Source: Eubacteriales bacterium (GTDB lineage Bacteria > Bacillota > Clostridia > Oscillospirales > CAG-272). From it: DNA of 64,000 nucleotides. The notes under the pieces were generated by a model, which saw only the letters and a program-made list of their open reading frames with translations, was not told the origin of the DNA and searched no databases. Position 1 is the first letter of the stretch, and each line of letters opens with the position of its first letter. The stretch lies in NCBI GenBank assembly GCA_045638685.1, contig JAZUBT010000037.1, forward strand, positions 34,483 through 98,482, in the 5' to 3' direction. A program made the position numbers and the translations under genes. Below are positions 3,301 through 39,032 of this stretch, piece after piece.

Positions 3301-3532
3301 CCTTATATTTTTTAGGAAGCGCTCCGTAGCATCTTGACACCGCCTCGGTTATCTCACGGTCTCCATACGATTTATAACACGGTGAATCGGGAAGATCAAT
3401 GACGGCTCCGTATATCGCGTTTTCAAAATAGTTAGACAAATGCAGAAAAAGCGCTTTATAAAACGCTTTTTCCACGCACAACGTTACGTTTCCGCTTATT
3501 TTTGTGAATACGGCAACCGCTATTTTTTTCAT
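362..3532 (-). CDS. Large (1056 aa) cytoplasmic hypothetical protein with two internal tandem-repeat arrays
   Basis: The ORF is uninterrupted for 3.2 kb with no signal peptide or TM segments. A GGGAAG RBS lies upstream of the ATG. It carries 13 aa repeats (KDAPYVGDNANPL) and 15 aa repeats (GKGKSGERGVFEGTV). I recognise no confident family motif. Confidence 0.85.
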   Translation of the reverse strand: MKKIAVAVFTKISGNVTLCVEKAFYKALFLHLSNYFENAIYGAVIDLPDSPCYKSYGDREITEAVSRCYGALPKKYKDSFFVIVRARRYNVKHTKSAAFCCENGAFGALSDLLSGNTEYYFTLGEVPESYDYLYFSAYNGVIEAGGIKALLDTAVITGKNVFPFIKDAPYVGDNANPLKDAPYVGDNANPLKDVLRVGDNTKLLKNALRVGDLKDASDIGYSTRPLKYAKDNGKALFLNTKNGRFKLSNKEKNGFSALEGLYIKEKASSIKGKVHGIKEKNTKGSDKKSSLPSKGESVLLKSVYVLNIPENVEGGYKEAPFKRKRSFSRFAYRAALAASRLFTGIIEKDCVSVTDAEEAAECLVALVAMRAFNFLGEEELLKKSDILLDIIDEKMFIGYEKGDKGKLLFLLTVILSAYSALARFYSVFWSSVLRIKSMCVNLKAHISSMFVEIDSIYLVMCYKRAVADMNKKYYIPRSMEAMLSEKETDIFLQGNDFEDIETAFCVLVIACNVCFCGNIKDFLLSAAVFRAKSSYLMRTDREKQSIRRVFTDKRSVGKESFLLSKQGLSPVKERLLQSGANPSLVPFMAYFEKLIRQNPINNDNKVVKICYIVKNSSLLLENLVRASAAIPEITVSVIFDNSYAFTKARKTFGDKAEIFLCGDRERCDEVKRSSYVVRRLAAETTLSELMKEAREMGRFKANVKSRPSVFSHSLCGGGDLKNGFCTFLQSGKNVSYGEFIKNPFTEIKTVMTTFVPRLRVKLMRVTLSDVKYRSGTELFLLTEKGSVLETGETAQLPNGEKLTVIRQGTEDGVLFAVQVYKNEREKEYLKSRITEDGFFEICEAAIKTEIKTELCQAEILSEFLDEKLSEDGGEFFMAKLRKIIERQVPRSFFSKMIFLTKAGELKGERLPFAAKMYAEEFSDRKIFDICLPAVYTRSGESRSGEGKSGEQGAFEGTVGKGKSGERGVFEKPVGKGKSGERGVFEGTVDKGNPGERGVCVRGLGEEKPEEDKIFKKEYRYPFYIHCLDRLKNAKEIDGEVFETRGGESGFYGENHK
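528..735. repeat. In-frame 45 bp tandem repeat, about 4 copies, in the C-terminal part of CDS 362..3532
   Basis: The plus strand repeats cactccacgctctcccgattttcctttacccacggttccctcaaa. The minus-strand translation is GKGKSGERGVFE(G/K)(T/P)V repeated. Confidence 0.9.
2880..3050. repeat. In-frame 39 bp tandem repeat, about 4 copies, in CDS 362..3532
   Basis: The unit tctccaacgtatggcgcgtcttttaacgggttcgcatta occurs twice nearly perfectly and twice in diverged form. It encodes the KDAPYVGDNANPL / KDVLRVGDNTKLL units. Confidence 0.9.
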
Positions 3533-3901
3533 TATCTTCCCGCGCCTTTCATTCTAAACTCTGTTTTCACGTTAATTTTAACCTTAAAAATTTATGTAAA
3601 CACGCTATGATTACCGTTAAACGACCTAAAAAGGCTTTCTTTTGCGTTTATTCTCGGCGGAATAAACTCTGTTTCCACAAAACCATAGGCCTTTTAAGAA
3701 AGCTCTGATACAATTCTTGCTGCGCCTCAACTAACCTAAATCTCTTTAGGCAAAACAAAAAACGCCGCACAAGGCTGTCTCCTATACAAAAATAAGAGCC
3801 TTTACCTTATTATGGCGTTTTTTTCTGTTTTTATTGACGCGCGGTATCTTTATTTTCTAACACCGTGTGAGTTAATAAGCTTTAGGCTAACGTAAATGTT
3901 T

Positions 3902-3985
3902 TTAGCTTTTAGCGCCTATAAAAAGCGCCATTACCAAAACACCGACCGCGCCGCCGAAGGCCGTACCTAAAATAAATCCAAGCAT
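3902..3985 (-). CDS. Candidate 27 aa hydrophobic glycine-zipper peptide (below the ORF-track cutoff)
   Basis: Hand translation gives MLGFILGTAFGGAVGVLVMALFIGAKS. A strong AAGGAGAA RBS sits 4 nt before the ATG. A long hairpin with a T-run lies downstream at about 3759-3826. The ORF stands alone in an 826 bp AT-rich spacer. Confidence 0.3.
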   Translation of the reverse strand: MLGFILGTAFGGAVGVLVMALFIGAKS

Positions 3986-4271: not shown

Positions 4272-4322
4272 CAAAATAAAAACGAGGCGCCGGTATAATC
4301 CGACACCTCGCTTTTGTTTTTT
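4272..4322. terminator. Rho-independent terminator (bidirectional shape) ending the ABC operon
   Basis: The hairpin cgaggcgccgg-tataat-ccgacacctcg is flanked by an A-run and a T-run. It lies 40 nt past the stop of CDS 4359..5423. Confidence 0.6.
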
Positions 4323-4358: not shown

Positions 4359-5423
4359 TTAACCGGTAATACCGGAACGCTCGATACCCTCAACCAGATA
4401 TCTCTGGCAGAAAAGATATACTATAATCAGCGGAGCGATTATCATAAGACCAATGGTGTTCTGCGCTGCAGCCTCAGCGATTTCCTTCGCGTGCTCTGTG
4501 TTAAGAGACGGAATGCTTTTACCGATAAGGTGAGGAAGCAGATACATCTTACTGCTGTTATACAGAAGATCGGTATAGAACTTATCCGTCCACTGCCAGG
4601 AGAACGAGAACAGGAATATCGTTATCATCATAGGTACGGAAAGGGGAAGAACTATCTTAATGAAGGTTCTGAAAACACCCGAACCGTCTATATACGCCGA
4701 CTCTTCAAGCTCGTCGGGAACTCCTCTGAAGAACTGACGCATAAGGAAGATATATAGTCCGTTCTTAAACGCAAGGCCACCGAATGAAAGAATTATAAGC
4801 GGCCAGAGCGAACCCGTAAGGTCGATAGAGGTTATTCCGCCGAGAACGTTAAGCGACTCGTTCACACCGCCTCCAAGCAGGTTAAGTAAACCGTATATAT
4901 CAAAGTACTTGAACTTAACGAAAAGCGCGAGCTGAATCGTTGAGTGCGGTACTATCATGGTAAATACAACCATCATAAAGAGGAAGTTTGAACCGCGGAA
5001 CTTAAACTTAGCAAATCCGTATCCGATAACACTACATACAAACGTCTGTACCAAAGCGGTAACAAGCGAAAGAAGGAAGGTGTTAAAGAGCGCCTGGAAA
5101 TAGTGAAGATCCACTATAATAGCCTTATACGTATTAAGCGTCGGATATTTCGGTATAAGCTTAACCGTAACGTCAACGAAGTCCTTTTCGCCCATGAACG
5201 AAGCCATTATCTTCGAAAAGAAGGGGTAAAGGATGATGTAAGAAATTCCGAGGAGAAGAAGGAAGCGGAGCATACGCCAAAGAAGAAATCCAACGTATGA
5301 CATATTCAGATATTTAAGCTTCATTCTCTCAAGTCTGGAGGTTCTCTCAAAATCAACCGTAATTTTATTTTTGCTCTCCTTAAGTACCTTGGGAGCAGTA
5401 TTAACGTTGTTATCCATTTTCAA
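4359..5423 (-). CDS. Carbohydrate ABC transporter permease (MalG/CUT1-type), pair B
   Basis: The protein is multi-pass and carries the EAA loop motif EESAYIDGSGVFRTFIKIVLPLSVP. It is 12 nt downstream of the partner permease. Confidence 0.92.
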   Translation of the reverse strand: MKMDNNVNTAPKVLKESKNKITVDFERTSRLERMKLKYLNMSYVGFLLWRMLRFLLLLGISYIILYPFFSKIMASFMGEKDFVDVTVKLIPKYPTLNTYKAIIVDLHYFQALFNTFLLSLVTALVQTFVCSVIGYGFAKFKFRGSNFLFMMVVFTMIVPHSTIQLALFVKFKYFDIYGLLNLLGGGVNESLNVLGGITSIDLTGSLWPLIILSFGGLAFKNGLYIFLMRQFFRGVPDELEESAYIDGSGVFRTFIKIVLPLSVPMMITIFLFSFSWQWTDKFYTDLLYNSSKMYLLPHLIGKSIPSLNTEHAKEIAEAAAQNTIGLMIIAPLIIVYLFCQRYLVEGIERSGITG

Positions 5424-5435
5424 AAACCTCCTTTC

Positions 5436-6437
5436 TTAAGAATCTCTCTTTTGGTAGAATACATACGCTCTGAGCAGCAGCGCAACAACCGCAACCATAA
5501 CAATTATAACTGCGAAGTAGAGCCACGCCATCGCCGCGGAAATCGCCTGATCTTCATCAAGGTACATTTTACTTATGTACTTCATAACCGCGTTTGATTC
5601 GGATGTAAACGAGTCGATAACGGTATATATAGAGTTAACAAGTATCATCGGGCTTATCATGGGAAGGGTTATCTTCCAGAAGGTTTCCCACGTCGTCGCA
5701 CCGTCTATCGAGCAGGACTCATATATAGCGGGCGAAATTGACTGGAGCGCTGCGAGGAATACGAGCATCTGTACTCCGCAACGTTCTATGATACCCGATA
5801 TACTGTTAACAGCTCCGATAACGTAGGTCGCTATTTCTGTACCTATCTTCATGTTTTTAAACATAAGCTCTATACTATCTGCGCTTATACCAAATCCGCT
5901 TTCCGCAGCACCGGTATTAATACCCTGGCTTTGGTCTGCCATGTAATCGTTCAAATCGGAGGTGTTGCTTGCTATATGTGCCATAAGTCCGGTAGAACAG
6001 ATAACCGGTATAAAGAATATCGCTCTGAACGCCGCTCTTCCGAGAACCTTTTGGTTAAGTATTACCGCTACAAAGAGCGAGAATATTACTATAACCGGAA
6101 TGTCAATTACCATTCCCCTTATTCCCGATACCAGCGTTTTGGTGAAGCTAACGTCCTCAAACAGCGCCTTCTGATAGTTTTCGAGTCCCACGAACTCAAA
6201 GAGGTATCCGCCGGCCTGCGGCTTTATAGACGAAAGGGAGTATCTGAATGATTCTACTATAACGGGAATGTATATAATCAGAAGTCCGAGAATAAACGGA
6301 AGAACGAATATCCATCCGCTTTTCGCCTTTCTCTTATCAAGAGAGGCGGCTTTTCTGCGGCGCTTTTTCGTGTTTTTAGGACGCGGTGCCGCGGGTGCCT
6401 GTATTACTTCAGGCTGAAGTTTTGCTTCATTATCCAT
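5436..6437 (-). CDS. Sugar ABC transporter permease (MalF/CUT1-type), pair B, with a basic N-terminal extension
   Basis: It has TM segments and the EAA-like motif YESCSIDGATTWETFWKITLPMISP. The N-terminus is lysine/arginine rich (KNTKKRRRKAASLDKRKAKS). Confidence 0.92.
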   Translation of the reverse strand: MDNEAKLQPEVIQAPAAPRPKNTKKRRRKAASLDKRKAKSGWIFVLPFILGLLIIYIPVIVESFRYSLSSIKPQAGGYLFEFVGLENYQKALFEDVSFTKTLVSGIRGMVIDIPVIVIFSLFVAVILNQKVLGRAAFRAIFFIPVICSTGLMAHIASNTSDLNDYMADQSQGINTGAAESGFGISADSIELMFKNMKIGTEIATYVIGAVNSISGIIERCGVQMLVFLAALQSISPAIYESCSIDGATTWETFWKITLPMISPMILVNSIYTVIDSFTSESNAVMKYISKMYLDEDQAISAAMAWLYFAVIIVMVAVVALLLRAYVFYQKRDS

Positions 6438-6451
6438 TTTGCTACCTCCCT

Positions 6452-9400
6452 TTATTTATAAGATATTGTTTTGTCGGTGTTGGAATCAAAGAAATCCTTT
6501 GACTGAACCTCAAGCTTTGCCTCTGTACGGTTGCCTAATTCATCAAGCTTATAGACGGTTACTTCAACGTCGTAGTTGTTGTAGTTAAGAAGGAACCAAT
6601 GTCCGTTATCGTACTCAACGTAAACAACGCTTCCGTCATTTATCTCAAGGTTAATTCCCTTAAGAATCGCATTCTTGTATGACTCAAGCTTTTCATCGGT
6701 TTGCTCGGCATTATAAAGCTCGGTATAGAGCTTAATATCAGCTTCTATTGCCTTAATGTCATATCCGTAGTTAGCTAAAACCTGATTGCGCTCGTCAACA
6801 TCGGAATAGTCTTCTACTATTCTTTCGTAAACAACCTTATTCTGTTTTGCATTGAGAAGCTTTGTCTCGTACTCAGCAAGCTTTTCATCGCGCTGTCTCG
6901 TAGCGTCCTCTTCAATATTTTCTCTCTCTTCATCTGTGAGCTTACGCTTACAGTTTACGAAGATATGGTCGTTTATAAGAGACTCCTGAACGTCTGCAAG
7001 AGCATTATTAATCTTGTCGTAAAGTCCAACGGAAATAACGTTGCCGTTTTCATCGTAGGTAGTAAGGAGCCTCTCCTTCCAAATCTCGTATCTTATAGCA
7101 TAATACTTGGAAAGCTCGGTATCCTCTTTGAGTATCTCAACGTTATCGTAGGAGAGCATCATATAAAGCGTTGCTCCGTTTTCGATAATCTTAAGAAGCT
7201 CGTAGCTCATATCCCCCGCCATATTAGTAGGCTTTCCTGCGAATACAACGTAGCCGTGGAAGGTCATTCCGAAGAACGGTATTGCTTCACTGGCGCCGAG
7301 GTAACGGCTGGAATCAAGGGGCGCGTTAAGTACTACGGATGCATAAGGAATGGTATATGCGTTTCCGGAATCTACCATAACCGCTCCGTACTGCTCTTTA
7401 AGTCTTTCAAGAGTTTCGATGGTGAACTTCTTGGCGTCCTCGCGGTTGTACGGATCGTCCTCGTCAAAGTCAGAGTTAAGCTCCGAGCCGAGTGTTCCGG
7501 CAGATACAAACGTCTGCTTATCCTCAAGAACAGCGGTAAACGACTTGTTAAATCTGTCAAAGAGACTTCTGAATACGCTGGACGAAATACAAATCTTACC
7601 CGTTGTGGTAAACGTCTGAAGAACTGCGTCATAGGTTCTCTTTGTGGTATAACGGTCGTCAATGGTCTTTACCGCGTCGGTCTTATAGGAGAATCCGTCG
7701 AACGCCGCAGAATCGCTCATATAAACGAAATCGAAGTCGGGATATACGCCGATTCCCTTTTCCGCCGCAAAGGTAAGGAACTCTCTGAAGCCTGCGTTTC
7801 CGCCGGCTACTTTTTCAAACTTAACCTTTGAAGGAATTGTTGATTTCATTCCGCCGTTCGTGTATCCGGTAAGTCTGTAATTTATGTTTGTAATCGGTGC
7901 CTTTGCCGTTTCAAGCTCTGTGGTCATCGCTTCGAGATCGGCAAAGGATGTAAGAGCCTTTTTAACTGTTACGGGAATACTGAGTACCGTTTCGTCGGTT
8001 TCGGTTACACCGAATGCCTCGATGTAAAGCGGTATATCCTCTTTAGCATCTTCTATACGCTTTATGTCTCCCTTCTTTTGAAGGAAGTCTCTGTATGCCT
8101 TTGCCATTCCAACGTAACTTGCGTCGTAATACGTTCTTTCGGTGTTGGATCTCGGACAGTTGGCATCGGTAAGCATTATATAATTAATTCTGAAAGAATC
8201 GGTATATTTACGGTCCGAAACAACGGTAAACGTATCGCTTCCGCTGATTGAAATCGCTTCGGCAAGGTTATACTGGTCCTGAGGTCTCGGAGCAAGCTTA
8301 CAGTAAGCTGAGTTATACATGAACTTGCTGTCGCCCTCGTGGTTGGTGAATATACTTGCAAGAGCGTCTCCCTCTGTAACTATCGCAAGGTATCCCGTAG
8401 AATACGCCTTATCGGTAGTGCCGGGAACGGTCGCTACCTCTGCTCTCTTCTCGTTAGTGGTAACAACACCGAATACAGGCATTCTGAATACCTCTTGCTT
8501 TGCGTTACCTATCTCCTGATACGCGTAGTCCTGTCCGTACACCATTCCGCCTCTGTTATAGTAGCTGGAAACGTCTTCGAATCTTACAAGCGCGCCGGAG
8601 CCGTCGGGGAAGAAGGTGTAGCCGTTGTAGTTACTCGGTCCTGCTCCCATATACTTAAGAAGGGTTATATCGGTAAGCTGGTAGTTACTTTCGTCAAAGG
8701 TAAGTCCGTTTGCGGGGAATCTTACCTCTACTCCAACGTCGGTAATGTAATACTCAAGAGCCATCTTGAAGTTAGCGGGGGCAACCTCGCTTCCCTCATA
8801 GCCTGCTTCCTTGTGGTCCTTGTCAAGCTCCTCGAAGGTGTAGTCGGGGCAGTAGCGTCTGATTATAGACTCAAGCTGCTTCTTTTCACGGCCAACCGTA
8901 TTCTCGTGGAGAAGATATAAGTTTTTCTCTTTAAGAATGGGGTATTTTTCAATCTTGCTGGAGTATCTGTTATATAGGCTATAGAATGCTTTGAGCTTCG
9001 AATAAGGTGTAGTTGCGTCATCGGTATCCGGGAACTCTTTAAGAAGCGGAGCGAGTATCATTTCCTTAAATCTCGTCTCGGTTATTGCCATCGGAAGAAG
9101 AATACGGGATTCTTCCTGTCCTATGGAGTATTCTACACGAACACCGCCCTTAAGCTTTCTTACGCTAATCTGGTTAAGAAGAGCCGAATCCTCGAAAGAG
9201 TTGTAGGTTCCCGCAGTACCGCTGATGGTGGAATAGTTTATAATTACCTGGCTGAGAAGATCTACCTTTCTGTCAAAGGATATACGGTTATCCTCCGCGG
9301 TATCGTAAGGAGTTGTGAAAAGTACGTTTCCGGTACTTCTGTCCTTAAGAGCTACCTCTCCGGTAATTCCATCTACGTAAAGGTCGAAGTCACCCTTCGT

Positions 9401-9658
9401 GTAGTAAAGCTCCATTGCGGAAAGTCTTGCTTCCTCGGTGAGGAACTTTGTCTTTCTGTCCGGATTGCCGATCTTGGTATAGTATTCCTCATAATATTTG
9501 GAATCAAACTTTAAAGAGTTTTCGTTAATCTCTCCCTCCGCCGCCATTACGGGAAGCAACGATAAGGTTGCAAGCAACGTGATTACGGTTAAGAACGCAA
9601 GGAAGCCTGACAATGTTCTGTTAAATATTCTTTTAGTACTGTTTCTCATTTTTGTCAT
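6452..9658 (-). CDS. 1068 aa secreted or anchored protein of unknown function (possibly DUF5696-like, possible glycan-active enzyme)
   Basis: It has an N-terminal signal or anchor (LSGFLAFLTVITLLATLSLLPVMAAEG) and no other TM segment. The C-terminal stretch is charged and coiled-coil-like (TDEERENIEEDATRQRDEKLAEYETKLLNAKQNK). It is embedded in the sugar ABC operon. The DUF5696 resemblance is from memory only. Confidence 0.85.
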   Translation of the reverse strand: MTKMRNSTKRIFNRTLSGFLAFLTVITLLATLSLLPVMAAEGEINENSLKFDSKYYEEYYTKIGNPDRKTKFLTEEARLSAMELYYTKGDFDLYVDGITGEVALKDRSTGNVLFTTPYDTAEDNRISFDRKVDLLSQVIINYSTISGTAGTYNSFEDSALLNQISVRKLKGGVRVEYSIGQEESRILLPMAITETRFKEMILAPLLKEFPDTDDATTPYSKLKAFYSLYNRYSSKIEKYPILKEKNLYLLHENTVGREKKQLESIIRRYCPDYTFEELDKDHKEAGYEGSEVAPANFKMALEYYITDVGVEVRFPANGLTFDESNYQLTDITLLKYMGAGPSNYNGYTFFPDGSGALVRFEDVSSYYNRGGMVYGQDYAYQEIGNAKQEVFRMPVFGVVTTNEKRAEVATVPGTTDKAYSTGYLAIVTEGDALASIFTNHEGDSKFMYNSAYCKLAPRPQDQYNLAEAISISGSDTFTVVSDRKYTDSFRINYIMLTDANCPRSNTERTYYDASYVGMAKAYRDFLQKKGDIKRIEDAKEDIPLYIEAFGVTETDETVLSIPVTVKKALTSFADLEAMTTELETAKAPITNINYRLTGYTNGGMKSTIPSKVKFEKVAGGNAGFREFLTFAAEKGIGVYPDFDFVYMSDSAAFDGFSYKTDAVKTIDDRYTTKRTYDAVLQTFTTTGKICISSSVFRSLFDRFNKSFTAVLEDKQTFVSAGTLGSELNSDFDEDDPYNREDAKKFTIETLERLKEQYGAVMVDSGNAYTIPYASVVLNAPLDSSRYLGASEAIPFFGMTFHGYVVFAGKPTNMAGDMSYELLKIIENGATLYMMLSYDNVEILKEDTELSKYYAIRYEIWKERLLTTYDENGNVISVGLYDKINNALADVQESLINDHIFVNCKRKLTDEERENIEEDATRQRDEKLAEYETKLLNAKQNKVVYERIVEDYSDVDERNQVLANYGYDIKAIEADIKLYTELYNAEQTDEKLESYKNAILKGINLEINDGSVVYVEYDNGHWFLLNYNNYDVEVTVYKLDELGNRTEAKLEVQSKDFFDSNTDKTISYK

Positions 9659-9665
9659 CCTCCTT

Positions 9666-11894
9666 TTACATTCTATAAGTAATTTCCGTAATTATGTTGG
9701 TAACAAGACCAATCATATCGGAAACAAGCGAGGCGAACAGGATGAAAATAAACATTATGATCGCCATTCCGCCAATGGTACCGAGGCTCGTCGCTATATT
9801 TTTGGCTATCGAGTAGTCGTGAGTTATCATTTCTCCGAAGAATATGAGAAGTCCTACCCAAATAAACGCAAACGTCGTTAAGAGGGTTATAATTCCGGAT
9901 TCAGCGGAGGAAAGAATGTGTGTAAGAAGCGTCGAGGGAATGATAAGGAGCGGAAGCGGTGCAAGTGAATATCCTGTTGCAATAAATATGTCCTTTGCAC
10001 TTCCCTCACCGTCAAACAGTGTGGTAAGACACCAGTTCGCAACAACCCAAAGCAAAAGCGGAATACATACCGAAAGACACTGAGTTCCTATACTGGAGTA
10101 AATTCCTCTCGGGTTGTACATATACGAGCGTCCTATACTTTGATAGGTAAATACCAGAATTGCAAGTCCCGTGTAGAAGAGCGCTCCTCTGAAGGAACCT
10201 CTCTTTTCGTGCTTAAGATCCCAAAAGCCGTCGAACGGATGGAACATAAGGTGGAACGCGAAGAGCAGCTCCTGACCGAAGGTTCTCTTGCCTTTTGTAA
10301 TAGCCGTCTTAGCGTTAACTCTTGCGGCAAACTTAAAGAACCACGAGAGGCCAAACGCAACCGCTACTACTACTATCGGAATTACGATAATATATTTAGA
10401 TACCCAGTCTTTTCTGAACATCTTAAACGCCTGAGAGTATCCCGTCGTATTATATGCGTAGGAATACTGCTCCATAGCACCGTTATAATCACCGCTACGG
10501 TAGAGCGACTTCGCTATTCCGATATAAGCTGCGTCGAAGTTAATGTTACGCTGAAGTATCTCGCTGTAATCGTCAACCGCTTTTTCATATTCTCGGTTGT
10601 TGTCGTTACGGAGAGCCTTTATGAGAAGATCGCCGTAGTCTGTTCTGGTGTACATCGCTATCGTCGGGTTTTTACTGTAAATATCGAGGATAAGCAAATT
10701 GTCATCCTGATAAGCTATCGCCTTTATACTCTCAAGGTTTCCGAGCTGTTTACCCTTATCTCCGAAAGCAAAGAGAAGGTTTCCGTTTTTATCGTACGTA
10801 AATATTCTCTGGCGCTGACGGTCGATAATTGACCAGGTTTTTTCAGGTCCCATAGCAACGTCTATTATCTTGGACGGTCCCGTCGGGCTTCCGTCGAAGG
10901 AAACCTTGGCAACCTTAACCTCTCCGGACGGAGGATAGAATCCCGTACGGTTCATAACGTCCTCACCCGCGGTGTTAAGCTTTTTAACCGGAGCGTAGTT
11001 AGCCGAGGTAGAACGGGACTCAATAGCCTGCTGCTGTTTATTCTCGTTGATGTTAGACGTGGTAGCGTAAATAAATCCGCTTTCGTCAATCGCTATGTTG
11101 TTATACTCGGTAGAAACGTAGGTTGCAGACTGTGCTCTCTGCTCTGCCGTCTGGAAGGTTCTCCAGAAGATGTCAAGCAGGTTAGCAGCAACCTTCTGTG
11201 CTCCGACAAATCCCTGGAACTCACCGTTAAGGTCCATCGAGATAATTCCCATGTAAGTAGAAGAAGAAACTACATATACGTGGCTATCGTTGGATGCAAC
11301 CGCAACGGGGGTGTAAGAAGATCCTGCCGGGAAAACCTCAGCCTCGGGCGCGCCTATAATACTGTGGAAGGTAGGCGTCGTACGTCCGCCGTTTTCTCTG
11401 TTAAATACAACTATTCTCGCATTTTTAGTGTCTGCAATATAGATTTTGGTCTCGGTAACACAAAGTCCTCCGGGAGAGTTCAGTACGTCGCTTGCTCCCA
11501 TCGAGTTAGTAAATTCGGAGATTTCATACAGACAGTTAAAATACCTGTCAAGAACGACTATTCTGTCGTGCTTAATTTCAACCATTTCGGCACTTCCCGC
11601 CGTTCCGGTGTTAACGAACTCGGTACCGCCGTCGCATATGTAAATGTTGCCGTCGGGGTCAACGACAAGGTCTTTAGGCTCATAGAGCTTCTTTCCGGTA
11701 CGCTCTATAATTTTGGTTGAAGCGGAGTCGTAAACTCTCTGCGGCTCGTAAGCATTAGGCGACGAAAGCTGTGTTCCGTCTATCGAATAAGTATATGTGG
11801 TGTACGCCGATGCGTATATCGGAAGAAGAGTCATAACAAGGGTAAGCGCACATATAACAAATCCGAATAATACTTTTCTTTTTCTTATATTCAT
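9666..11894 (-). CDS. Fusion protein: signal peptide, NHL-type beta-propeller repeats, TPR-like segment and a C-terminal Yip1-type multi-pass membrane domain
   Basis: NHL-like repeats are visible (PKDLVVDPDGNIYICDGG; PGGLCVTETKIYIADTKNARIVVF). A TPR-like segment follows (YEKAVDDYSEILQRNINFDAAYIGIAKSLYRSGDYNGAMEQY). About five hydrophobic helices fill the last 250 aa. Confidence 0.85.
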   Translation of the reverse strand: MNIRKRKVLFGFVICALTLVMTLLPIYASAYTTYTYSIDGTQLSSPNAYEPQRVYDSASTKIIERTGKKLYEPKDLVVDPDGNIYICDGGTEFVNTGTAGSAEMVEIKHDRIVVLDRYFNCLYEISEFTNSMGASDVLNSPGGLCVTETKIYIADTKNARIVVFNRENGGRTTPTFHSIIGAPEAEVFPAGSSYTPVAVASNDSHVYVVSSSTYMGIISMDLNGEFQGFVGAQKVAANLLDIFWRTFQTAEQRAQSATYVSTEYNNIAIDESGFIYATTSNINENKQQQAIESRSTSANYAPVKKLNTAGEDVMNRTGFYPPSGEVKVAKVSFDGSPTGPSKIIDVAMGPEKTWSIIDRQRQRIFTYDKNGNLLFAFGDKGKQLGNLESIKAIAYQDDNLLILDIYSKNPTIAMYTRTDYGDLLIKALRNDNNREYEKAVDDYSEILQRNINFDAAYIGIAKSLYRSGDYNGAMEQYSYAYNTTGYSQAFKMFRKDWVSKYIIVIPIVVVAVAFGLSWFFKFAARVNAKTAITKGKRTFGQELLFAFHLMFHPFDGFWDLKHEKRGSFRGALFYTGLAILVFTYQSIGRSYMYNPRGIYSSIGTQCLSVCIPLLLWVVANWCLTTLFDGEGSAKDIFIATGYSLAPLPLLIIPSTLLTHILSSAESGIITLLTTFAFIWVGLLIFFGEMITHDYSIAKNIATSLGTIGGMAIIMFIFILFASLVSDMIGLVTNIITEITYRM

Positions 11895-11910
11895 TATTGC
11901 TCCCCTTTCT

Positions 11911-12780
11911 TTAATCCTTCATTCCGGATGACGCCATCGTTTCAACCATTTTACTTTGAGTTATAATGAATACCGTAATCGGTACGCTCATCATTATAAC
12001 GGCTGCCGCAGCTCCCGCGCCCTGTGTTCCGGATGCGGATATAATGCTGTTGATAGCGTTGTCGAATGTTTTTAAGTTTTCACTGTAAACGTAGCTCGAT
12101 GCACCGACGTTCCAGACCTGCTGGAAAACGGTAATCATAAGCGTAAGCCACGCGGGCTTAACCAGAGGCATAACGAGCGTAAGATATATTCTGAATTCCG
12201 AGCAACCCTCTATTCGCGCCGCCTCTATCATTGAGTCGGGAATTGATGAGTCTATAAAGTTTTTCATAAGGTACAGACCGAGGGTAGATGCCCAAATCGG
12301 AACTATGGATATCGTATATGTGTTAAGCCAGTTAAGCGAAACGAAGATAATAAAGTGCGCTATTCCCGTAACCGTAGAGGAAATCATAAGCGAATAAACT
12401 ATAAGCTGGAATATTCCGTTAGCTCCGGGGAAGCGAATCTTGGAAATCGAATACGCCGCCATAGAACCTATAATAAGACATCCGACGGTTGCACCGAGAG
12501 AAATAAATATCGTGTTGAATATGTATCTCGAAATCGGAACCCACGTTGACGTCATTGACGCGAAAAGGTCGATAAAGTTCTGGAACGTCGGTTTTATAAC
12601 GTAGAAGTTAGGCGGTGTAAGGAACATTTCTCCTATCGGCTTGAATGCCGTTATTATAAGATAATAAGTAGGAAGAAACATGAATATACCGAATATCGAA
12701 AGTATCAGGGTAATCGTTGTATCTCCGCCGACGCTTCGGTTAAGAACGACGGCGTGCTTTCTTGTTCTTAGCTTTTTCAT
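11911..12780 (-). CDS. Carbohydrate ABC transporter permease (MalG/CUT1-type), pair A
   Basis: It has six predicted TM segments and the EAA motif IEAARIEGCSEFRIYLTLVMPLVKP. Confidence 0.92.
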   Translation of the reverse strand: MKKLRTRKHAVVLNRSVGGDTTITLILSIFGIFMFLPTYYLIITAFKPIGEMFLTPPNFYVIKPTFQNFIDLFASMTSTWVPISRYIFNTIFISLGATVGCLIIGSMAAYSISKIRFPGANGIFQLIVYSLMISSTVTGIAHFIIFVSLNWLNTYTISIVPIWASTLGLYLMKNFIDSSIPDSMIEAARIEGCSEFRIYLTLVMPLVKPAWLTLMITVFQQVWNVGASSYVYSENLKTFDNAINSIISASGTQGAGAAAAVIMMSVPITVFIITQSKMVETMASSGMKD

Positions 12781-12782
12781 AC

Positions 12783-13754
12783 TCAGTTACCTACCTTCGA
12801 CAAAGCATTTTTAATAAATATGTTTGAACCAAACATAAGTACAAAGAGCACGATGGATATACAAGAAGCGTATCCAACCTCGTATCTGCTGTTCAGGTAG
12901 TCTGCCATGTGATGCTGAAGCGTCCACGCGCAGTAGTCGGTAGAGGGGTTTCCGCAGAGCGCGTCAACTATTACACCGATTCCGAATGCACCGGTTATAG
13001 CGAGAACCGCACCGAACATAAGAATTGATTTCATTGAAGGAAGGGTTATGTACCAAAGCTCCTGCCAACGGTTTTTAACACCGTCAACGGCTCCCGCCTC
13101 GTAAAGGCTTCTGTCAACTCCCTGAAGACCTGCGATAAATGAAAGGAACGCAGTTCCGAGAGACGTCCATATAGAAACCACTATACAAACGGGAACGATG
13201 TACGTTACGTTCTGTAAGAATACTATAGGCTTTGATATTAAACCGAATTTCATTAAAACTCCGTTTGCAAGTCCGTATATATCTCCCTGGAATATAAGCT
13301 TCCAGACGAGGTAAGCAGAACCGGAAATGGAGGGACCGTAGAATATAAACGTCGCAACTGCTCTTACCTTCGGAGCAAGCTCGTTAATAAACCACGCGAG
13401 AAGGAATGAAAGTATGTATGAAAGCGGTCCTGTTGTCAGCGCAAATATAAGCGTGTTCTGGAACGCTGTAAGGAAGAGGTCATCTTCCAGAAAAAGACGA
13501 ACGTAGTTATCCATGAAGCAGAATTCCGGAAATTCGAACATATTAAAGTTTGTAAAACTTAAAAAGAACGACATCAAAACCGGAACTATGGTAAAGGTCG
13601 CAAACATAAGAAGGAACGGTCCAACCATAACGTATCCGGACCACTTACGCTTCATTTCGCGTCTCGTGTATTCCCATCTGCTGATAGTTTTGTTGGAGTA
13701 CGGTACTTCTTCGGTCGCTACTTCGTCCTGTATAGCCGTAGTGTTATCAGACAT
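12783..13754 (-). CDS. Sugar ABC transporter permease (MalF/CUT1-type), pair A
   Basis: It has TM segments and the EAA motif LYEAGAVDGVKNRWQELWYITLPSMKS. The gap to the next permease is 2 nt. Confidence 0.92.
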   Translation of the reverse strand: MSDNTTAIQDEVATEEVPYSNKTISRWEYTRREMKRKWSGYVMVGPFLLMFATFTIVPVLMSFFLSFTNFNMFEFPEFCFMDNYVRLFLEDDLFLTAFQNTLIFALTTGPLSYILSFLLAWFINELAPKVRAVATFIFYGPSISGSAYLVWKLIFQGDIYGLANGVLMKFGLISKPIVFLQNVTYIVPVCIVVSIWTSLGTAFLSFIAGLQGVDRSLYEAGAVDGVKNRWQELWYITLPSMKSILMFGAVLAITGAFGIGVIVDALCGNPSTDYCAWTLQHHMADYLNSRYEVGYASCISIVLFVLMFGSNIFIKNALSKVGN

Positions 13755-13850
13755 AGTCGCTATCTCCTATCTTAATATTGTAGTATTCGCCCTCGGCGGG
13801 AGCCGCTTTAAACAGCTCCGCGCCGAAAACGGTATTTTTGTCTTTGGCTG

Positions 13851-16800
13851 TTATTCGTCCTTTGCAGGTACTACTTCACCGGAATAATAATCAATGTACT
13901 CAAGGTGATATTCCTTACGCTTACGCGAAAGCTCCTTATCTATGTCAACGACGTAGTCAAGGATCTGGTCAACCGCGTTTGCATTGGAGTTATAAACAGC
14001 AAGGAACGCAAAGTTTACGTAACGACCGATGTTGTAATCACCGGGGTTATACGGAATACCTTTAAGGTGAGGAATCTGCTCGAACATAGCCTCTCTCTCA
14101 GCGTCGGTCCATGCCTGCTCTAAGAGAGCATTGAGGTTTGCCGTATTGTATTTTACGGTAGTGTTCGAGGATACGGCAAGCTGCTGTCTTGCAAGTCTTG
14201 CCTGTGCATCGTCATCGGAATACCATTTGATGTATTCCCATACGTGCTGGGGATTATCACTTCCCTTAGGAATTACAATTCCTTCAACGTTAAGTATGGA
14301 TGAGCGGTCAACCGTTCCGTCGCCCTTATCCCAACCGATAAGAGGCTCCATAGTCCACATTCCGCGAAGCTCGTAGTAGCTCATGAAGGTATTGTACGTA
14401 GTCCAGTTGGCAACGACAATCGGAATCTCACCGGTACGGAAACGGGTAAGGTCGTAGTTAATCGGAAGCGAATAGTCGTTAAAGAGTGAACAAAGTGTAT
14501 CGAATGCTTCGAGACAGGTTACGCTGTTATTAAATCTCTTGTAATCGTCTGCATACATCTTCTCGCCCATCTGGTAAAGAAGCATCTGGTAACCTGCAAG
14601 AGAGGTCTGCATACCCATCGTCATATGGTTGTTCGTAAGCTTGGGAAGAACATCCAGAAGCTCCTGCCACGTTCTCGGAGGCTTCAGGTCGTACTGCGCG
14701 AACACGTCAACACGGTAGAACGACATTTCGTAGTTCATTGTACAAGGAATAAGATACGTTTTTCCGCTAAGCGAAACCGCTTCAAGCGCCGCATGGGAGA
14801 ATTTTACGTTAAACTTACCGGTCTCCTCATAAGTCTTGGGATCCGGTACGACGAACTCTCCGTCCTCGCCCTTCGGGCAAAGCTCACTGAATCCGGAATA
14901 TACGTCGTCTCCAACGCTCTTGCCCTCCGGTATATTTCCTTTTTCAAGGTCAGCCTCGGTGTACTTAGCGCTGAGGTCCTCAACCGCGTGGCGCAGTCCC
15001 CACGAAACCGCGGTTCCCGATGCCATCATAGCAACGTCAGGTCCTACTCCAGCAAGAATGGACTCCTGAAGTCCCTGCGCAACGTAGCGGATATTAACGG
15101 CTATGTTGGTTTTCGGAGTAAACGTGGAATCAATCATTGTACGGAGTATAAGCGCGTCCTCACGGCTGGTAGTGTTCCACATGAGTATCGTGCCCTTATA
15201 ATCCTTGGCGTCCTTATCGCTCTTGAATCCTATAACGTTGTAATCCTTAAAGAAGCTGGCTACAAAAGCCTTAGCCTCGTAACCCATAGCGTAGAAGAAT
15301 CCCGCCTTAGCCTTCGGAACCTTGGTCTCCTCACCCTGAATACGTAAGTAGTCAAGCTTCAGGGGCTGAGAAAGCGAGGTGTAAAGCCAGTTACTGAGCG
15401 CCGTTAAATAGTTTTTAAATGAAAGGAAGTTAGGAGCAATCTCATACTCGTCAAGCGCCATCTTCGAAACGAGTGTGCGTATCGTGTCAAGCGTTGCAAT
15501 ATGCTGTCCCGTCGCTCCAGTTATATCAACGAGACCGTTATAAATTTCGTCAAGCTTTATTGCCGCGTTAGCAAGGTCAGACATAACTCCGGGAAGAAGT
15601 CTCGAAAATCCGTAGTCGCGGTAGGTATCGGGATTTGTTCCGGTTACCATAAGTATCTTCTGGTAGTCGTTGTTAAGCGTACTGATAAGCGCCGCTATAT
15701 CGTAAATGTACGCCGACATATCGCCGAGAACAACCTCTATCTCTATTTCATTCCAACCGGCTTCGAAATAGAATAAGTAATCCTGCTTTTCCTCACCCTC
15801 TTTACCGTTGCCGAGAAGGATGTTCTGGAAGGAGGTGTCATAATTGAACTTAAGGTAGCTTGCCTCTTTAAACGGTATCTCTCCGTTTATTCTTATACGT
15901 CTTGACGTAAACATACCCGCCATAGTGTTCTGACGGAATCTCGCCATTATGTTATACAGACCTTCTTCCTGAACGTAAACCCTGTACTTCATATACTGTC
16001 CAACAACGTTGGAGTTGGAAATGTTATAAACAAGGTTAGAAGGATGCGAAGGAGAGTTAAGGCAGGAGGTACGGTCGGTGCCGGGGAAAAGAACCTGGTC
16101 AGATACTCTGTACGGGCTCTCTGCCTCCACCATATATACGCTCTCACCGGTATAAATCTGAAGACCGGAGCCAAGCCATCTGTCAAGAACAGTCTCGTAG
16201 CTGTTCTCTGCGTTATATCCGTAGATTTTTATCTCGGAAACAACGAGAGGCTCTCTGGTTGCCTCAAAGGTGAAATAATGCTCACCCTCGGTAAGATAGA
16301 ACTGGAAGGGCTCTACCGTATAACCGAGCCAGTCACGAAGGAAGTATGTACGCCATTCGGGAGTCTCTACACGGTCGGGACGGATATCGTTGTCTTCAAT
16401 ATCGGTATCCCATACGTAGTTACCGCCCGCTCCGCCTGAGCTTTTAAGCCACGCGGTGTACGCGGTGTTATACTCCGCATCACTTGCAAAATCAGCGCGT
16501 TTCGGTTCGCCGTCTTTATAAAGCGTAGAGCTTCCGTCCGTTCCGACGTATCCCCAGCATCTCGGTATGTAAAGATAACGGCACTCGTTAAACGGAAGCT
16601 GCTCGTCGAGATAGAACATACGCTCTATAATCGTCTTGGTACCAACCGTTTCAGCTACTCCGTCGCCGTTTTCGTCATACTCGGAAACCGGGAAGTATCT
16701 AAGGTCAATCGCATAAAGACCGCTCTGAGAAACAGTGATTTTAAAGGTCGTTTTGCCGCTCGCAGGCATATAAACTCCCTCTTTTGTCTCCTTGGTTCCT

Positions 16801-17165
16801 TCAACCGTCACAGCCGTAAACTCATCAACCTTATAATCCGACGTGGTAAGATACTCGCCGGAAACAGGGCTTTTCTCTCCCTTCGGGACGATTATATCAG
16901 CTGCATAAAACGTTTTATCCGAGCTTTTGTCCACCTGAGTTTTATCAAGCCACTTGCTTCTATAAACGTCGTAGTTCATACCGCTCGTGAGCTTCAGTAT
17001 CTCCTCAAGAGTTTTGCCGCCGTACGTTGTTTCGTCGTCAAGAGCGCTGCCGCCGGTAAGCCCCGGATTTTCATCAGCGTAAACCGCTGTGAAAGGCAAC
17101 ATTCCGACCAGTGTACAAACCAACAAAAGCACTGCAACAAGTCTGTGTTTTCGCCATTGTTTCAT
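13851..17165 (-). CDS. Giant (1104 aa) extracellular solute-binding protein with two N-terminal CBM-like beta-sandwich modules
   Basis: It has a signal peptide (LVAVLLLVCTLVGMLPFTAVYA). Two modules carry CBM6/35-like signatures (SGLYAIDLRYFPV...; VEAESPYRV...EGLYNIMARFRQN). The C-terminal roughly 500 aa resembles a family-1 sugar SBP. A GGAGG RBS is present. Confidence 0.88.
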   Translation of the reverse strand: MKQWRKHRLVAVLLLVCTLVGMLPFTAVYADENPGLTGGSALDDETTYGGKTLEEILKLTSGMNYDVYRSKWLDKTQVDKSSDKTFYAADIIVPKGEKSPVSGEYLTTSDYKVDEFTAVTVEGTKETKEGVYMPASGKTTFKITVSQSGLYAIDLRYFPVSEYDENGDGVAETVGTKTIIERMFYLDEQLPFNECRYLYIPRCWGYVGTDGSSTLYKDGEPKRADFASDAEYNTAYTAWLKSSGGAGGNYVWDTDIEDNDIRPDRVETPEWRTYFLRDWLGYTVEPFQFYLTEGEHYFTFEATREPLVVSEIKIYGYNAENSYETVLDRWLGSGLQIYTGESVYMVEAESPYRVSDQVLFPGTDRTSCLNSPSHPSNLVYNISNSNVVGQYMKYRVYVQEEGLYNIMARFRQNTMAGMFTSRRIRINGEIPFKEASYLKFNYDTSFQNILLGNGKEGEEKQDYLFYFEAGWNEIEIEVVLGDMSAYIYDIAALISTLNNDYQKILMVTGTNPDTYRDYGFSRLLPGVMSDLANAAIKLDEIYNGLVDITGATGQHIATLDTIRTLVSKMALDEYEIAPNFLSFKNYLTALSNWLYTSLSQPLKLDYLRIQGEETKVPKAKAGFFYAMGYEAKAFVASFFKDYNVIGFKSDKDAKDYKGTILMWNTTSREDALILRTMIDSTFTPKTNIAVNIRYVAQGLQESILAGVGPDVAMMASGTAVSWGLRHAVEDLSAKYTEADLEKGNIPEGKSVGDDVYSGFSELCPKGEDGEFVVPDPKTYEETGKFNVKFSHAALEAVSLSGKTYLIPCTMNYEMSFYRVDVFAQYDLKPPRTWQELLDVLPKLTNNHMTMGMQTSLAGYQMLLYQMGEKMYADDYKRFNNSVTCLEAFDTLCSLFNDYSLPINYDLTRFRTGEIPIVVANWTTYNTFMSYYELRGMWTMEPLIGWDKGDGTVDRSSILNVEGIVIPKGSDNPQHVWEYIKWYSDDDAQARLARQQLAVSSNTTVKYNTANLNALLEQAWTDAEREAMFEQIPHLKGIPYNPGDYNIGRYVNFAFLAVYNSNANAVDQILDYVVDIDKELSRKRKEYHLEYIDYYSGEVVPAKDE

Positions 17166-17350
17166 TTAGGGTTCCTCCATAAAGAATTGTTATGTACGTT
17201 CCGCGCCTTCGCGCGTAAACTAAAATGGCTATAATTCGCTCCTCTGAGCCGGTAGCCAACACCGCTTCCGATTCGACGTTCAAGCGCTCTGTCCACACTT
17301 ATCGCGTGCCCGAAAACACCTACATCGTCGCAAAAGTTTTTTACTCTAAA

Positions 17351-17379
17351 ATTATAACATAATAATATAAAAAAGTCAA
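17351..17379 (-). promoter_or_regulatory. Sigma-A type promoter for the 17165..4359 operon
   Basis: On the minus strand, TTGACT and TATAAT are separated by a 17 nt spacer. This predicts a leader of about 178 nt before the SBP start codon. Confidence 0.55.
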
Positions 17380-17780: not shown

Positions 17781-17902
17781 ATCATTATTTAGTTATCCAT
17801 CCTCTCGGAAGCAGCGCGGTTCCAAGGCATTCGGGCTTTAAATTTCCCCGTTTTTCAAAGCGCTTCGGGGGGCAAATCATGCTGCGCCTTCACAGTGCGT
17901 GA

Positions 17903-18015
17903 GATTAAAAATATACTGTTTCTCCGCTGACCGTAAGATTAAAAATGTACTGTTTTTCCACTGACCGTAAGATTAAAAATATACCGTTTCTCCGGTGCTC
18001 GCCGATTTATAAATC
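17903..18015. repeat. 34 bp tandem array duplicating the 3' end and stop codon of CDS 17973..19019
   Basis: The copies are gattaaaaatatactgtttctccgctgaccgtaa, gattaaaaatgtactgtttttccactgaccgtaa and gattaaaaatataccgtttctccggtgctcgccg. The third copy holds the real stop codon. A diverged fourth copy lies inside the CDS. Confidence 0.85.
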
Positions 18016-25078: not shown

Positions 25079-25367
25079 ATTTGCTCTCCTTAAAAAGATT
25101 ATTTTGCAAGTACAATTATAGCATTCCGAGGTTGTTTTATCAATGTATTTTTTCAATCACGAAATGTATTATTTCAACCCGATTTATTGTTATTCGCAAT
25201 ATAACCAAAAAGATATTTATATTTTATAGCAAACTACCCAAAGCGCCACCGAGTTTACAAGCACTGTCGTCCTTTTTTATCTTGAAAAATGACGCGCTTA
25301 CAAAAATTCACACTAAATTAACATTTTTAAACCGTTAAATTCAAAGAATTATGTTAAAATTGCGTTT

Positions 25368-31680: not shown

Positions 31681-31956
31681 AAGATCATACCGGCCGGGGA
31701 GCTAGCGGTATCCTGTAACCTGCAATCCGCTACAGCAGGGGTGGTTTCCAATCCGAGGGCTGACGATGTATGGTCTGCGCCGTGTGTAATCGTGTTGACG
31801 AACGGGTCTTGTGCAATCAACGACCGTGAACCATGTCAGGCGGGCGCACCGAGCAGCATTAAGTGGTAGAGTTGATGTGCCACAAGGGTGCCTGTTCCGA
31901 GCGAGAGCCGCGGTTAACGCATATACCGTTTTGTTCAGAGTGCGGTGTATGATCTT
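31681..31956 (+). ncRNA. ffs: Signal recognition particle RNA, long Bacillus-type form with an Alu domain
   Basis: GGGGAGCUAGCGGUAUCCUGUAACCUGCAAUCCGCUACAGCAGGG closely matches the B. subtilis scRNA 5' domain. The domain IV core GUGAACCAUGUCAGG...GAGCAGCAUUAAGUG is present. The termini pair (AAGAUCAUACCG / CGGUGUAUGAUCUU). The gene lies immediately upstream of dnaX, as in Bacillus. Confidence 0.92.
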
Positions 31957-38955: not shown

Positions 38956-39032
38956 GTATAATACAATATACAGCACTAAAATAAACGGTATATATTATTT
39001 TATTAAAAGCTTTGGCTTTTGGAGGAAACAAA

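Follow-up and report, generated by a model that had tools for sequence, protein, structure and literature searches.

A conserved seven-gene operon of Clostridia combining CUT1-type importer subunits with a putative glycosidase of the DUF5696 family

ATP-binding cassette (ABC) importers of the CUT1 type (TC 3.A.1.1), whose structural prototype is Escherichia coli MalEFGK2, include systems that work with a shared MsmX/MsmK ATPase, such as Bacillus subtilis AraNPQ-MsmX; in Firmicutes, an MsmX-type ATPase encoded in trans is commonly shared between such importers (PMC7658222, PMC5730181), and orphan permease pairs, like shared components, are frequent there (PMC7658222). Here we describe a related operon of seven genes on the minus strand of a 64,000-nucleotide stretch of DNA from an Eubacteriales bacterium (contig JAZUBT010000037.1; hereafter the window, to whose numbering all positions refer). 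In the order of transcription, the genes of this operon, which spans positions 4359-17165, encode a giant solute-binding protein (SBP), a pair of MalF-type and MalG-type permeases (A1 and A2), a membrane protein that combines NHL, TPR and Yip1 domains, a 1068-aa protein of the Pfam family DUF5696, and a second pair of MalF-type and MalG-type permeases (B1 and B2). Its likeness to CUT1 systems lies in the SBP_bac_1/8 protein with the fold of oligosaccharide-binding SBPs, in the MalF-type and MalG-type subunits (BPD_transp_1) with EAA loops, present twice over, and in the lack of an ATPase gene within the operon, next to whose Paenibacillus copy a UgpC/MsmX-type gene is found. It differs from them in that two pairs of membrane subunits accompany one SBP; in that this SBP lacks a lipobox and reaches 1104 aa, with two N-terminal β-sandwiches and a helical bundle; and in the obligatory presence, between the permease pairs, of a Yip1-NHL protein and a glycoside hydrolase (GH)-like protein. 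We propose, with a probability of roughly 0.6, that the locus is a self-sufficient operon through which an extracellular glycan is captured, cut and imported, with a CUT1-type ABC importer at its core.

Other parts of the arrangement also recall described systems. GH129, GH101, GH31 and GH36 are families of retaining α-glycosidases, and the known members of the GH129/GH101/GH31 fold group cut mucin-type and algal α-linked glycans. In the bifidobacterial route for mucin O-glycans, the extracellular GH101 enzyme EngBF frees a disaccharide that is taken up by a CUT1 importer with a GltA-type SBP. The operon would resemble this route in outline, with a surface enzyme of the same predicted fold group feeding a CUT1 importer and with GltA among the structural matches of its SBP; in the bifidobacterial case, however, enzyme and transporter do not make up one fixed operon, and there is neither a Yip1 protein nor a second permease pair. 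On the evidence of its model, the DUF5696 protein appears to share the fold of GH129 (the 3,6-anhydro-D-galactosidase ZgGH129, PDB 5opq; the α-N-acetylgalactosaminidase NagBb, PDB 5wzp), GH101 (endo-α-GalNAc-ases, PDB 5a59 and 2zxq), GH31 and GH36, but it is set apart from all of these by a variable helical insertion that precedes its C-terminal domain and by being always encoded within an ABC-importer operon. The Yip1 fusion has a possible parallel in YknWXYZ of Bacillus, where the Yip1-family membrane protein YknW is encoded together with an ABC transporter, the exporter YknXYZ, and modulates its assembly, for which it is needed (PMC4887032). YknYZ is a MacB-type exporter that works with a membrane-fusion protein whereas the operon encodes a type-I importer, and an ectodomain of NHL propeller and TPR is absent from YknW. 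The polysaccharide-utilization loci of Gram-positive bacteria, finally, have exactly the layout found around the Butyrivibrio copy of the operon (kinase and regulator, GH43, the seven genes, extra SBPs); in the clade of the window, by contrast, the operon stands alone, without a regulator or a carbohydrate-active enzyme (CAZyme) recognizable by sequence, and its core of seven genes is invariant where typical loci mix and match.

Every component belongs to a known superfamily (CUT1, Yip1, NHL and, by prediction, the GH129/101/31 fold), and it is the combination that is new; literature searches on Yip1 with ABC or GH, on "YIP1 family protein" and on GH129 with DUF turned up no account of it. What stays out of the ordinary and undescribed is threefold: one SBP goes with two permease pairs that diverged long ago; a membrane protein of NHL-TPR-Yip1 type is obligatory; and the SBP, of ~1100 aa, comprises two β-sandwiches and a helical bundle and lacks a lipobox.

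Conservation and architecture of the operon

A profile of the 1068-aa protein retrieved 440 related stretches from a collection with one genome per species, a count that rests on two peptide patterns specific to this DUF5696 subfamily. The best 80 of these, together with three loci from exact-protein look-ups, gave the 83 loci compared here, whose open reading frames (ORFs) were assigned by phmmer against the window proteins and were called naively (first start after a stop), so that lengths and gaps are approximate. The order SBP-A1-A2-Yip1-DUF5696-B1-B2 on one strand is found in all of the complete loci (64/64); the other 19 have lost genes at contig ends, except for one in which the SBP ORF is split. 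This constancy holds while the identity of the DUF5696 protein falls to ~40% among the fetched loci and median identities to the window proteins amount to 35% (SBP), 43% (DUF5696), 51% (Yip1 fusion) and 57-61% (permeases), with median gaps of 1-21 nt and of 54 nt 3' of the SBP gene. The flanking genes vary from locus to locus and are of housekeeping type: a Pfam census of the 110 nearest neighbor genes returned mainly functions such as aminotransferase and tRNA synthetases, with ROK, AraC and GH123 only scattered among them. No recurring CAZyme, regulator or ATPase neighbor was found across the 64 loci, 79 of the 83 loci gave no match to an ABC ATPase within 10 kb, and the operon is the sole sugar-uptake gene set within 10 kb in two close relatives for which precomputed domain calls exist. 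A cluster whose order recurs in every complete relative is not a chance arrangement.

According to the labels of the records, the sources of these loci are metagenome-assembled genomes of Eubacteriales, Clostridia, Oscillospiraceae and Ca. Flemingibacterium from gut, rumen and digester samples. One complete copy (L030, contig JAGARL010000319.1) is labeled Methanocorpusculum sp., an archaeon, and has a layout nearly identical to that of the Clostridia loci L029 and L031; mis-binning, as opposed to an archaeal copy, is the most likely explanation of this label.

The order extends beyond these loci to plasmid records, a tblastn search of which located a DUF5696 protein in Butyrivibrio fibrisolvens D1 (WP_073386913.1, on pNP243) and another in Paenibacillus cellulosilyticus KACC 14175 (WP_110042929.1), at 25-26% identity. 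Both copies keep the seven-gene order with one-to-one orthology, pair A corresponding to pair A and pair B to pair B, and in both of them the counterpart of the Yip1 fusion is labeled "YIP1 family protein" by the Prokaryotic Genome Annotation Pipeline; in Butyrivibrio, where the seven genes correspond to WAA20_RS20510 to RS20545, this protein is split, its NHL and Yip1 portions being encoded separately. The Paenibacillus copy lies on a megaplasmid amid other uptake genes, immediately downstream of a gene for a UgpC/MsmX-type ATPase, and several of its stop and start codons overlap, including those at the DUF5696-B1 junction. In Butyrivibrio, a GH43 gene (RS20550) precedes the seven genes and overlaps the start of the SBP gene, genes for a histidine kinase and a response regulator are divergent from them, and two ordinary lipoprotein SBPs, both with a lipobox, are encoded 3' of B2; this is the layout of a typical Gram-positive glycan-utilization locus. 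A metagenome scan with a single protein yielded only three close relatives of the Butyrivibrio copy, and a metagenomic relative keeps the order and has two SBP-sized ORFs downstream.

In the window, the seven ORFs lie head to tail, and the signals around them agree with the preliminary description of this DNA, which had placed a strong promoter at 17351-17379 ahead of genes separated by at most about 100 nt and mostly by 2-16 nt. The promoter is of the TTGACT-17-TATAAT type with a TG extension, has 11 of 12 consensus matches and ranks first among 27 promoter-like sites in the scanned region; the gaps measure 96, 2, 16, 7, 14 and 12-18 nt from 5' to 3', the last depending on which start codon of B2 is used. 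The frame of this gene offers a TTG at 5423 and an ATG at 5417, the latter ~10 nt past an GAAAGGAGG ribosome-binding site and the more likely start. A terminator (4315-4278) follows directly on the last stop codon, and no comparable one was found inside the cluster; at the level of sequence, the seven genes are shown to be one operon with a single promoter and a single terminator. Its 185-nt leader gave no match to a regulatory RNA at the Rfam gathering threshold, and the fold of the leader is not significant (z = −1.65). The hairpin in the gap 3' of the SBP gene (Table 1) may, with low confidence, stabilize or attenuate the transcript. The preliminary description had gone on to propose an uncharacterized operon for surface glycan processing and import. 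The fixed order in the 64 complete loci, in Butyrivibrio and in Paenibacillus bears this out, as does the linkage, in all 64, of homologs of the SBP, the Yip1 fusion and the DUF5696 protein, whose co-occurrence it had suggested surveying; so, too, does the literature, since searches for DUF5696 or PF18952 found no publication.

The encoded proteins

The 1068-aa protein matches DUF5696 (PF18952) with an E-value of 2.5e-120 (403 bits, against a gathering threshold of 25.6); all 34 aligned homologs match the family too. The structural statements made for it and for the SBP rest on single AlphaFold models. In its AlphaFold2 model (predicted local distance difference test, pLDDT, 79; predicted TM-score 0.74), a signal peptide and an N-terminal β-sandwich region lead to a (β/α)8-like barrel (~544-900), a helical hairpin or insertion (909-1000) and a C-terminal β-domain (1009-1058). 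Foldseek against the PDB places GH129 first (5opq, E=6e-23, TM-score normalized to the target, TMt, 0.66; NagBb, 5wzp, E=2e-17), followed by GH101 (~1e-11), GH31 (~1e-8) and then GH36, with a probability of 1.0, and identity in the structural alignments is just 7-11%. The three-part architecture of GH129, GH101 and GH31, in which a β-sandwich, a barrel and a C-terminal β-domain follow one another, is thus seen in the DUF5696 protein in its predicted structure only. E302, D352, D377, D/E547, D654, D730, R739, N766, H801, N812 and E826 are invariant in members down to 25% identity (Paenibacillus), D352 and D377 being located in the N-terminal domain; this pattern would fit an active site better than a passive scaffold. 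On these grounds the protein is probably the glycosidase of the system, and it should be called GH129/GH101-like in its modeled fold and not a member of any GH family by sequence.

The family is a large one: at 50% identity, 5389 clusters reach E≤1e-3 and 2883 reach E≤1e-30. Between barrel and C-terminal domain its members carry a helical insertion rich in Ala, Lys and Glu, which ranges from 0 to 1465 aa (median 103; 101 in the window protein), and the C-terminal β-domain is always last. In five of them (P0428, P0411, P0416, P0372 and P0404) the insertion, which begins at about residue 1000, has grown to 900-1465 aa of Ala/Lys/Glu/Thr-rich sequence without a Pfam match, the C-terminal β-domain still being terminal. 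The idea that this domain is a detachable anchor on a stalk was rejected, as it comes directly after the barrel in Butyrivibrio, Paenibacillus and some short members, and the helical region appears better seen as a variable insertion in the body of the putative enzyme.

In the giant SBP, Pfam recognizes SBP_bac_1/8 at residues 681-1005 only (E=1.5e-19 and 5.2e-18). Its AlphaFold2 model (pLDDT 84) begins with a Sec signal peptide and a first β-sandwich (~84-315), continues with a second β-sandwich (~344-479) that resembles a carbohydrate-binding module (CBM) and with a helical bundle (483-598), and ends in the SBP fold (599-1085). For this last region, Foldseek returned SBPs for oligosaccharides, with leading E-values of ~3e-17 to 1e-15 and TMt of 0.66-0.80; they include Tlet_1705, the binding proteins for sophoro-oligosaccharide, cycloisomalto-oligosaccharide and cycloalternan, GltA and MalE. 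Weak CBM_35 signals (best E=1.2e-7) come from the N-terminal part of 10 of 39 homologs and Golvesin_C signals from that of 30, so that "CBM-fused SBP" is a reasonable but soft label for what the sequences suggest. A lipobox is absent from the window SBP and from 57 of 63 orthologs, and the lipoprotein tether usual for CUT1 SBPs of monoderm bacteria is therefore missing, whereas the ZnuA protein of the window and the extra SBPs of Butyrivibrio do carry a lipobox. The SBP may instead be retained at the surface by an uncleaved signal peptide or by contacts with other proteins, cleavage and signal-anchor retention having been judged by eye. Co-variation in length between its helical bundle and the insertion of the DUF5696 protein was considered and rejected (in the SBP this region keeps a steady 170-177 aa; rho=0.11, p=0.39), and the correlation of the insertion with the N-terminal length of the SBP is weak (rho=0.27) and confounded by naive start calls and shared ancestry.

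The 742-aa membrane protein, in addition to NHL, matches Pfam Yip1 at residues 548-716 (49.8 bits, cut-off 28.6). A signal peptide is followed by the NHL β-propeller, by TPR close to the membrane, by a transmembrane helix (502-520), by the invariant motif HPFDGFWDLKHEKRGS (552-567), and then by the multi-pass Yip1 domain; the propeller is extracellular, and from this topology we infer that HPFDGFWDLKHEKRGS is cytoplasmic. The mature N-terminus is highly conserved (YxTYTYSxDG), and a PDB profile search returned the NHL propellers of Pizza, TRIM71 and PknD, with E-values down to 5e-25, as well as TPR proteins. The protein contains no recognizable output domain, which makes a classical sensor role unlikely, and what ties it to the ABC-importer genes is gene linkage.

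All four permeases match BPD_transp_1 above the Pfam cut-off and UgpA, PotB, UgpE, MalF or MalG weakly in NCBIfam; with ~6 hydrophobic segments each and EAA-type coupling loops read from the translations, their sequences identify them as type-I importer subunits, which require an ABC ATPase. A1 and B1 are 24% identical and A2 and B2 23-25%, so that the two pairs are old paralogs and not the result of a recent duplication. The 64-kb window contains no sugar-type ABC ATPase, no regulator and no sequence-recognizable GH, its sole ABC_tran gene being part of the ZnuABC set. The preliminary description had likewise found neither ATPase nor transcription factor nor glycoside hydrolase or lyase in the operon, which stands at the level of sequence but no longer for the hydrolase, as the model of the 1068-aa protein matches GH129, GH101, GH31 and GH36; this protein, listed there as unexplained, can now be described as a DUF5696 member with a predicted GH129/GH101/GH31-like fold. 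The missing ATPase, which had been presented as an anomaly, is ordinary for CUT1 systems that share MsmX (PMC7658222, PMC5730181); a UgpC/MsmX-type gene lies right beside the Paenibacillus copy. The domain calls made there were correct, both for the CBM-like N-terminal signals of the SBP and for the fusion of NHL, TPR and Yip1.

Proposed working and competing explanations

In the working that we propose, the giant SBP would hold a polymer or a large oligosaccharide at the cell surface via its CBM-like β-sandwiches, and the DUF5696 protein would cleave this glycan, most likely at an α-linkage and by a reaction of the retaining α-glycosidase type, because every matching GH family works in this way. 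Uptake of the products would then fall to pairs A and B, whose specificities or partners are probably different; energy for both would come from one MsmX/UgpC-type ATPase that they share and whose gene lies at another place in the genome, and the NHL-TPR-Yip1 protein might serve, in the manner of YknW, as a membrane assembly or scaffold factor that keeps the exported components near the permeases. That a sugar importer and a GH-like enzyme are joined in one unit is more probable than this proposal as a whole.

Several points weigh against it. One AlphaFold model, compared by Foldseek, is the whole basis of the GH assignment, and no sequence link between DUF5696 and GH families was found by phmmer and a 34-sequence profile against the PDB or by Pfam at E≤5 for the 34 members; D763 and D782, considered as catalytic residues, were rejected because they are not conserved. 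The simple model offers no reason why two permease pairs should have just one SBP gene between them. The two extra lipoprotein SBPs 3' of pair B in Butyrivibrio suggest that this pair may rely on different binding proteins. That the NHL-TPR-Yip1 protein is a scaffold is pure analogy and carries a probability far below that of the overall proposal. Lastly, no CAZyme or regulator lies beside the operon in the window's own clade, so that a housekeeping role is possible.

This last point is also where a different function for the whole set could begin, namely a housekeeping one in which the cell recycles or remodels its own envelope or capsular glycan and does not forage for external polysaccharide. 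The setting of the operon in the window's clade, amid housekeeping genes with no regulator or other CAZyme nearby, would suit such a function, as would its near-consensus promoter without an obvious operator, and the 0-1465-aa range of the DUF5696 insertion could track envelope thickness. The Butyrivibrio copy, however, belongs to a regulated locus that also contains GH43, extra SBPs and a two-component system, that of Paenibacillus sits on a megaplasmid amid uptake genes, and CBM-like SBP domains are typical of the capture of external polymers; we regard an envelope function as rather improbable. More doubtful still is that two independent sugar importers merely stand side by side, with the Yip1 and DUF5696 proteins as separate passengers and pair B working with an SBP from elsewhere. 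The pairs are indeed just 23-25% identical, and orphan pairs and shared components are common in firmicute CUT1 systems (PMC7658222), but the seven genes have never been seen apart, be it in the 64 complete loci with their differing flanks or in Butyrivibrio and Paenibacillus at ~25% DUF5696 identity, and they are joined by very short gaps or overlaps under a single promoter and a single terminator. Such invariant linkage is hard to reconcile with independent importers.

A closer relation between the DUF5696 protein and pair B is suggested by the mirrored layout, in which a large exported protein is twice followed by a MalF-type and a MalG-type gene. The DUF5696 protein could dock on B1B2 as a dedicated partner and hand over a product or ligand, or act as a non-catalytic receptor, the SBP serving pair A, so that the operon would consist of two parallel modules, as the preliminary description had read it. 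Most copies have no second SBP, and the DUF5696-B1 junction is tight (14 nt here, median 17.5 nt, overlapping codons in Paenibacillus). We know of no type-I ABC importer, however, that accepts its substrate except from a protein of SBP fold; the two lipoprotein SBPs 3' of B2 in Butyrivibrio, and the ORFs of similar size in a metagenomic relative, suggest that pair B uses ordinary SBPs where these are present, and the invariant carboxylates of the DUF5696 protein would point to catalysis over mere binding. A dedicated partnership is accordingly judged unlikely, and the same must be said of an arrangement in which all seven products would assemble into one surface-membrane supercomplex, with the DUF5696 protein coupled to B1B2 so that hydrolysis and import are channeled without a classical SBP, the SBP feeding pair A, and the Yip1 hub tethering both lipobox-less giants. 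Were this true, the DUF5696 protein would be a new GH family and also the first enzyme subunit of a type-I ABC importer.

Under the preferred explanation, a glycan-cutting importer, the DUF5696 protein would, if it is an active enzyme, likewise constitute a glycoside hydrolase family not known before, within the GH129/GH101/GH31 fold group. Given its wide spread, mostly in uncultured Clostridia of gut, rumen and digester, the operon may be a main carbohydrate route for poorly understood members of the animal and human gut. As an importer design beyond the textbook, it offers a concrete case for how accessory membrane proteins organize importers, and its presence in the culturable Butyrivibrio fibrisolvens D1 and Paenibacillus cellulosilyticus KACC 14175 makes it testable.

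Coordinates and neighboring features of the window

Table 1. Features of the seven-gene operon, in the order of transcription.
Feature	Position	Strand	Basis
σ70-type promoter, TTGACT + 17-nt spacer + TG-extended TATAAT	17351-17379	−	promoter scan and sequence
5' leader, ~185 nt, without recognized RNA element	17166-17350	−	Rfam, folding
Giant SBP, 1104 aa	13851-17165	−	ORF and Pfam SBP_bac_1/8
GC-rich imperfect hairpin without T-run, in the 96-nt gap 3' of the SBP gene	13795-13825	−	by eye, not tool-scored
Permease A1, 323 aa, MalF/UgpA-type, EAA loop YEAGAVDG	12783-13754	−	BPD_transp_1
Permease A2, 289 aa, MalG/UgpE-type, EAA loop IEAARIEG	11911-12780	−	BPD_transp_1
NHL/TPR/Yip1 membrane protein, 742 aa	9666-11894	−	Pfam NHL and Yip1
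DUF5696 protein, 1068 aa, putative extracytoplasmic glycosidase	6452-9658	−	PF18952
Permease B1, 333 aa, MalF-type, EAA loop YESCSIDGA, Lys/Arg-rich N-terminus	5436-6437	−	BPD_transp_1
Permease B2, MalG-type, EAA loop EESAYIDGSG	4359-5417 (ATG, 352 aa) or 4359-5423 (TTG, 354 aa)	−	BPD_transp_1
Intrinsic terminator, 16-bp stem, 8 GC pairs, T-run	4278-4315	−	terminator scan

The rest of the window is of housekeeping character, with thyX, znuABC, dnaX, pcrA, recN, tyrS, comEC and similar genes, and no paralogs of the operon's proteins were found elsewhere in it. On the upstream side, ~520 nt before the promoter, a 34-bp tandem repeat (17898-17994) of 2.9 copies with 87% matches extends across the 3' end of a gene for a GFO/IDH/MocA oxidoreductase.

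Between the terminator and the next large gene, an ORF of 27 codons (3901-3984, minus strand) with a promoter-like site (4031-4002) and a good ribosome-binding site, AAAGGAGAAG, codes for the very hydrophobic sequence MLGFILGTAFGGAVGVLVMALFIGAKS and may, to judge from this, give rise to a small membrane peptide. Farther along lies a 1056-aa ORF (362-3532, minus strand) without a Pfam or NCBIfam match; it is present 3' of the operon only in the closest relatives (L003-L008, L011, L012 and L070) and is, because of this restriction, probably not a member of the set.

Two further large ORFs have no Pfam match. One, of 1408 aa (20930-25156, minus strand), has a lipoprotein-type signal (…SLLVAC KKD) after an internal Met and is probably a large surface lipoprotein; the other, of 997 aa (39012-42005, plus strand), has a hydrophobic N-terminus and is probably a membrane protein. 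The bacterial large signal recognition particle RNA (Rfam RF01854, 146.7 bits), an ordinary feature, is encoded at 31685-31952 on the plus strand.

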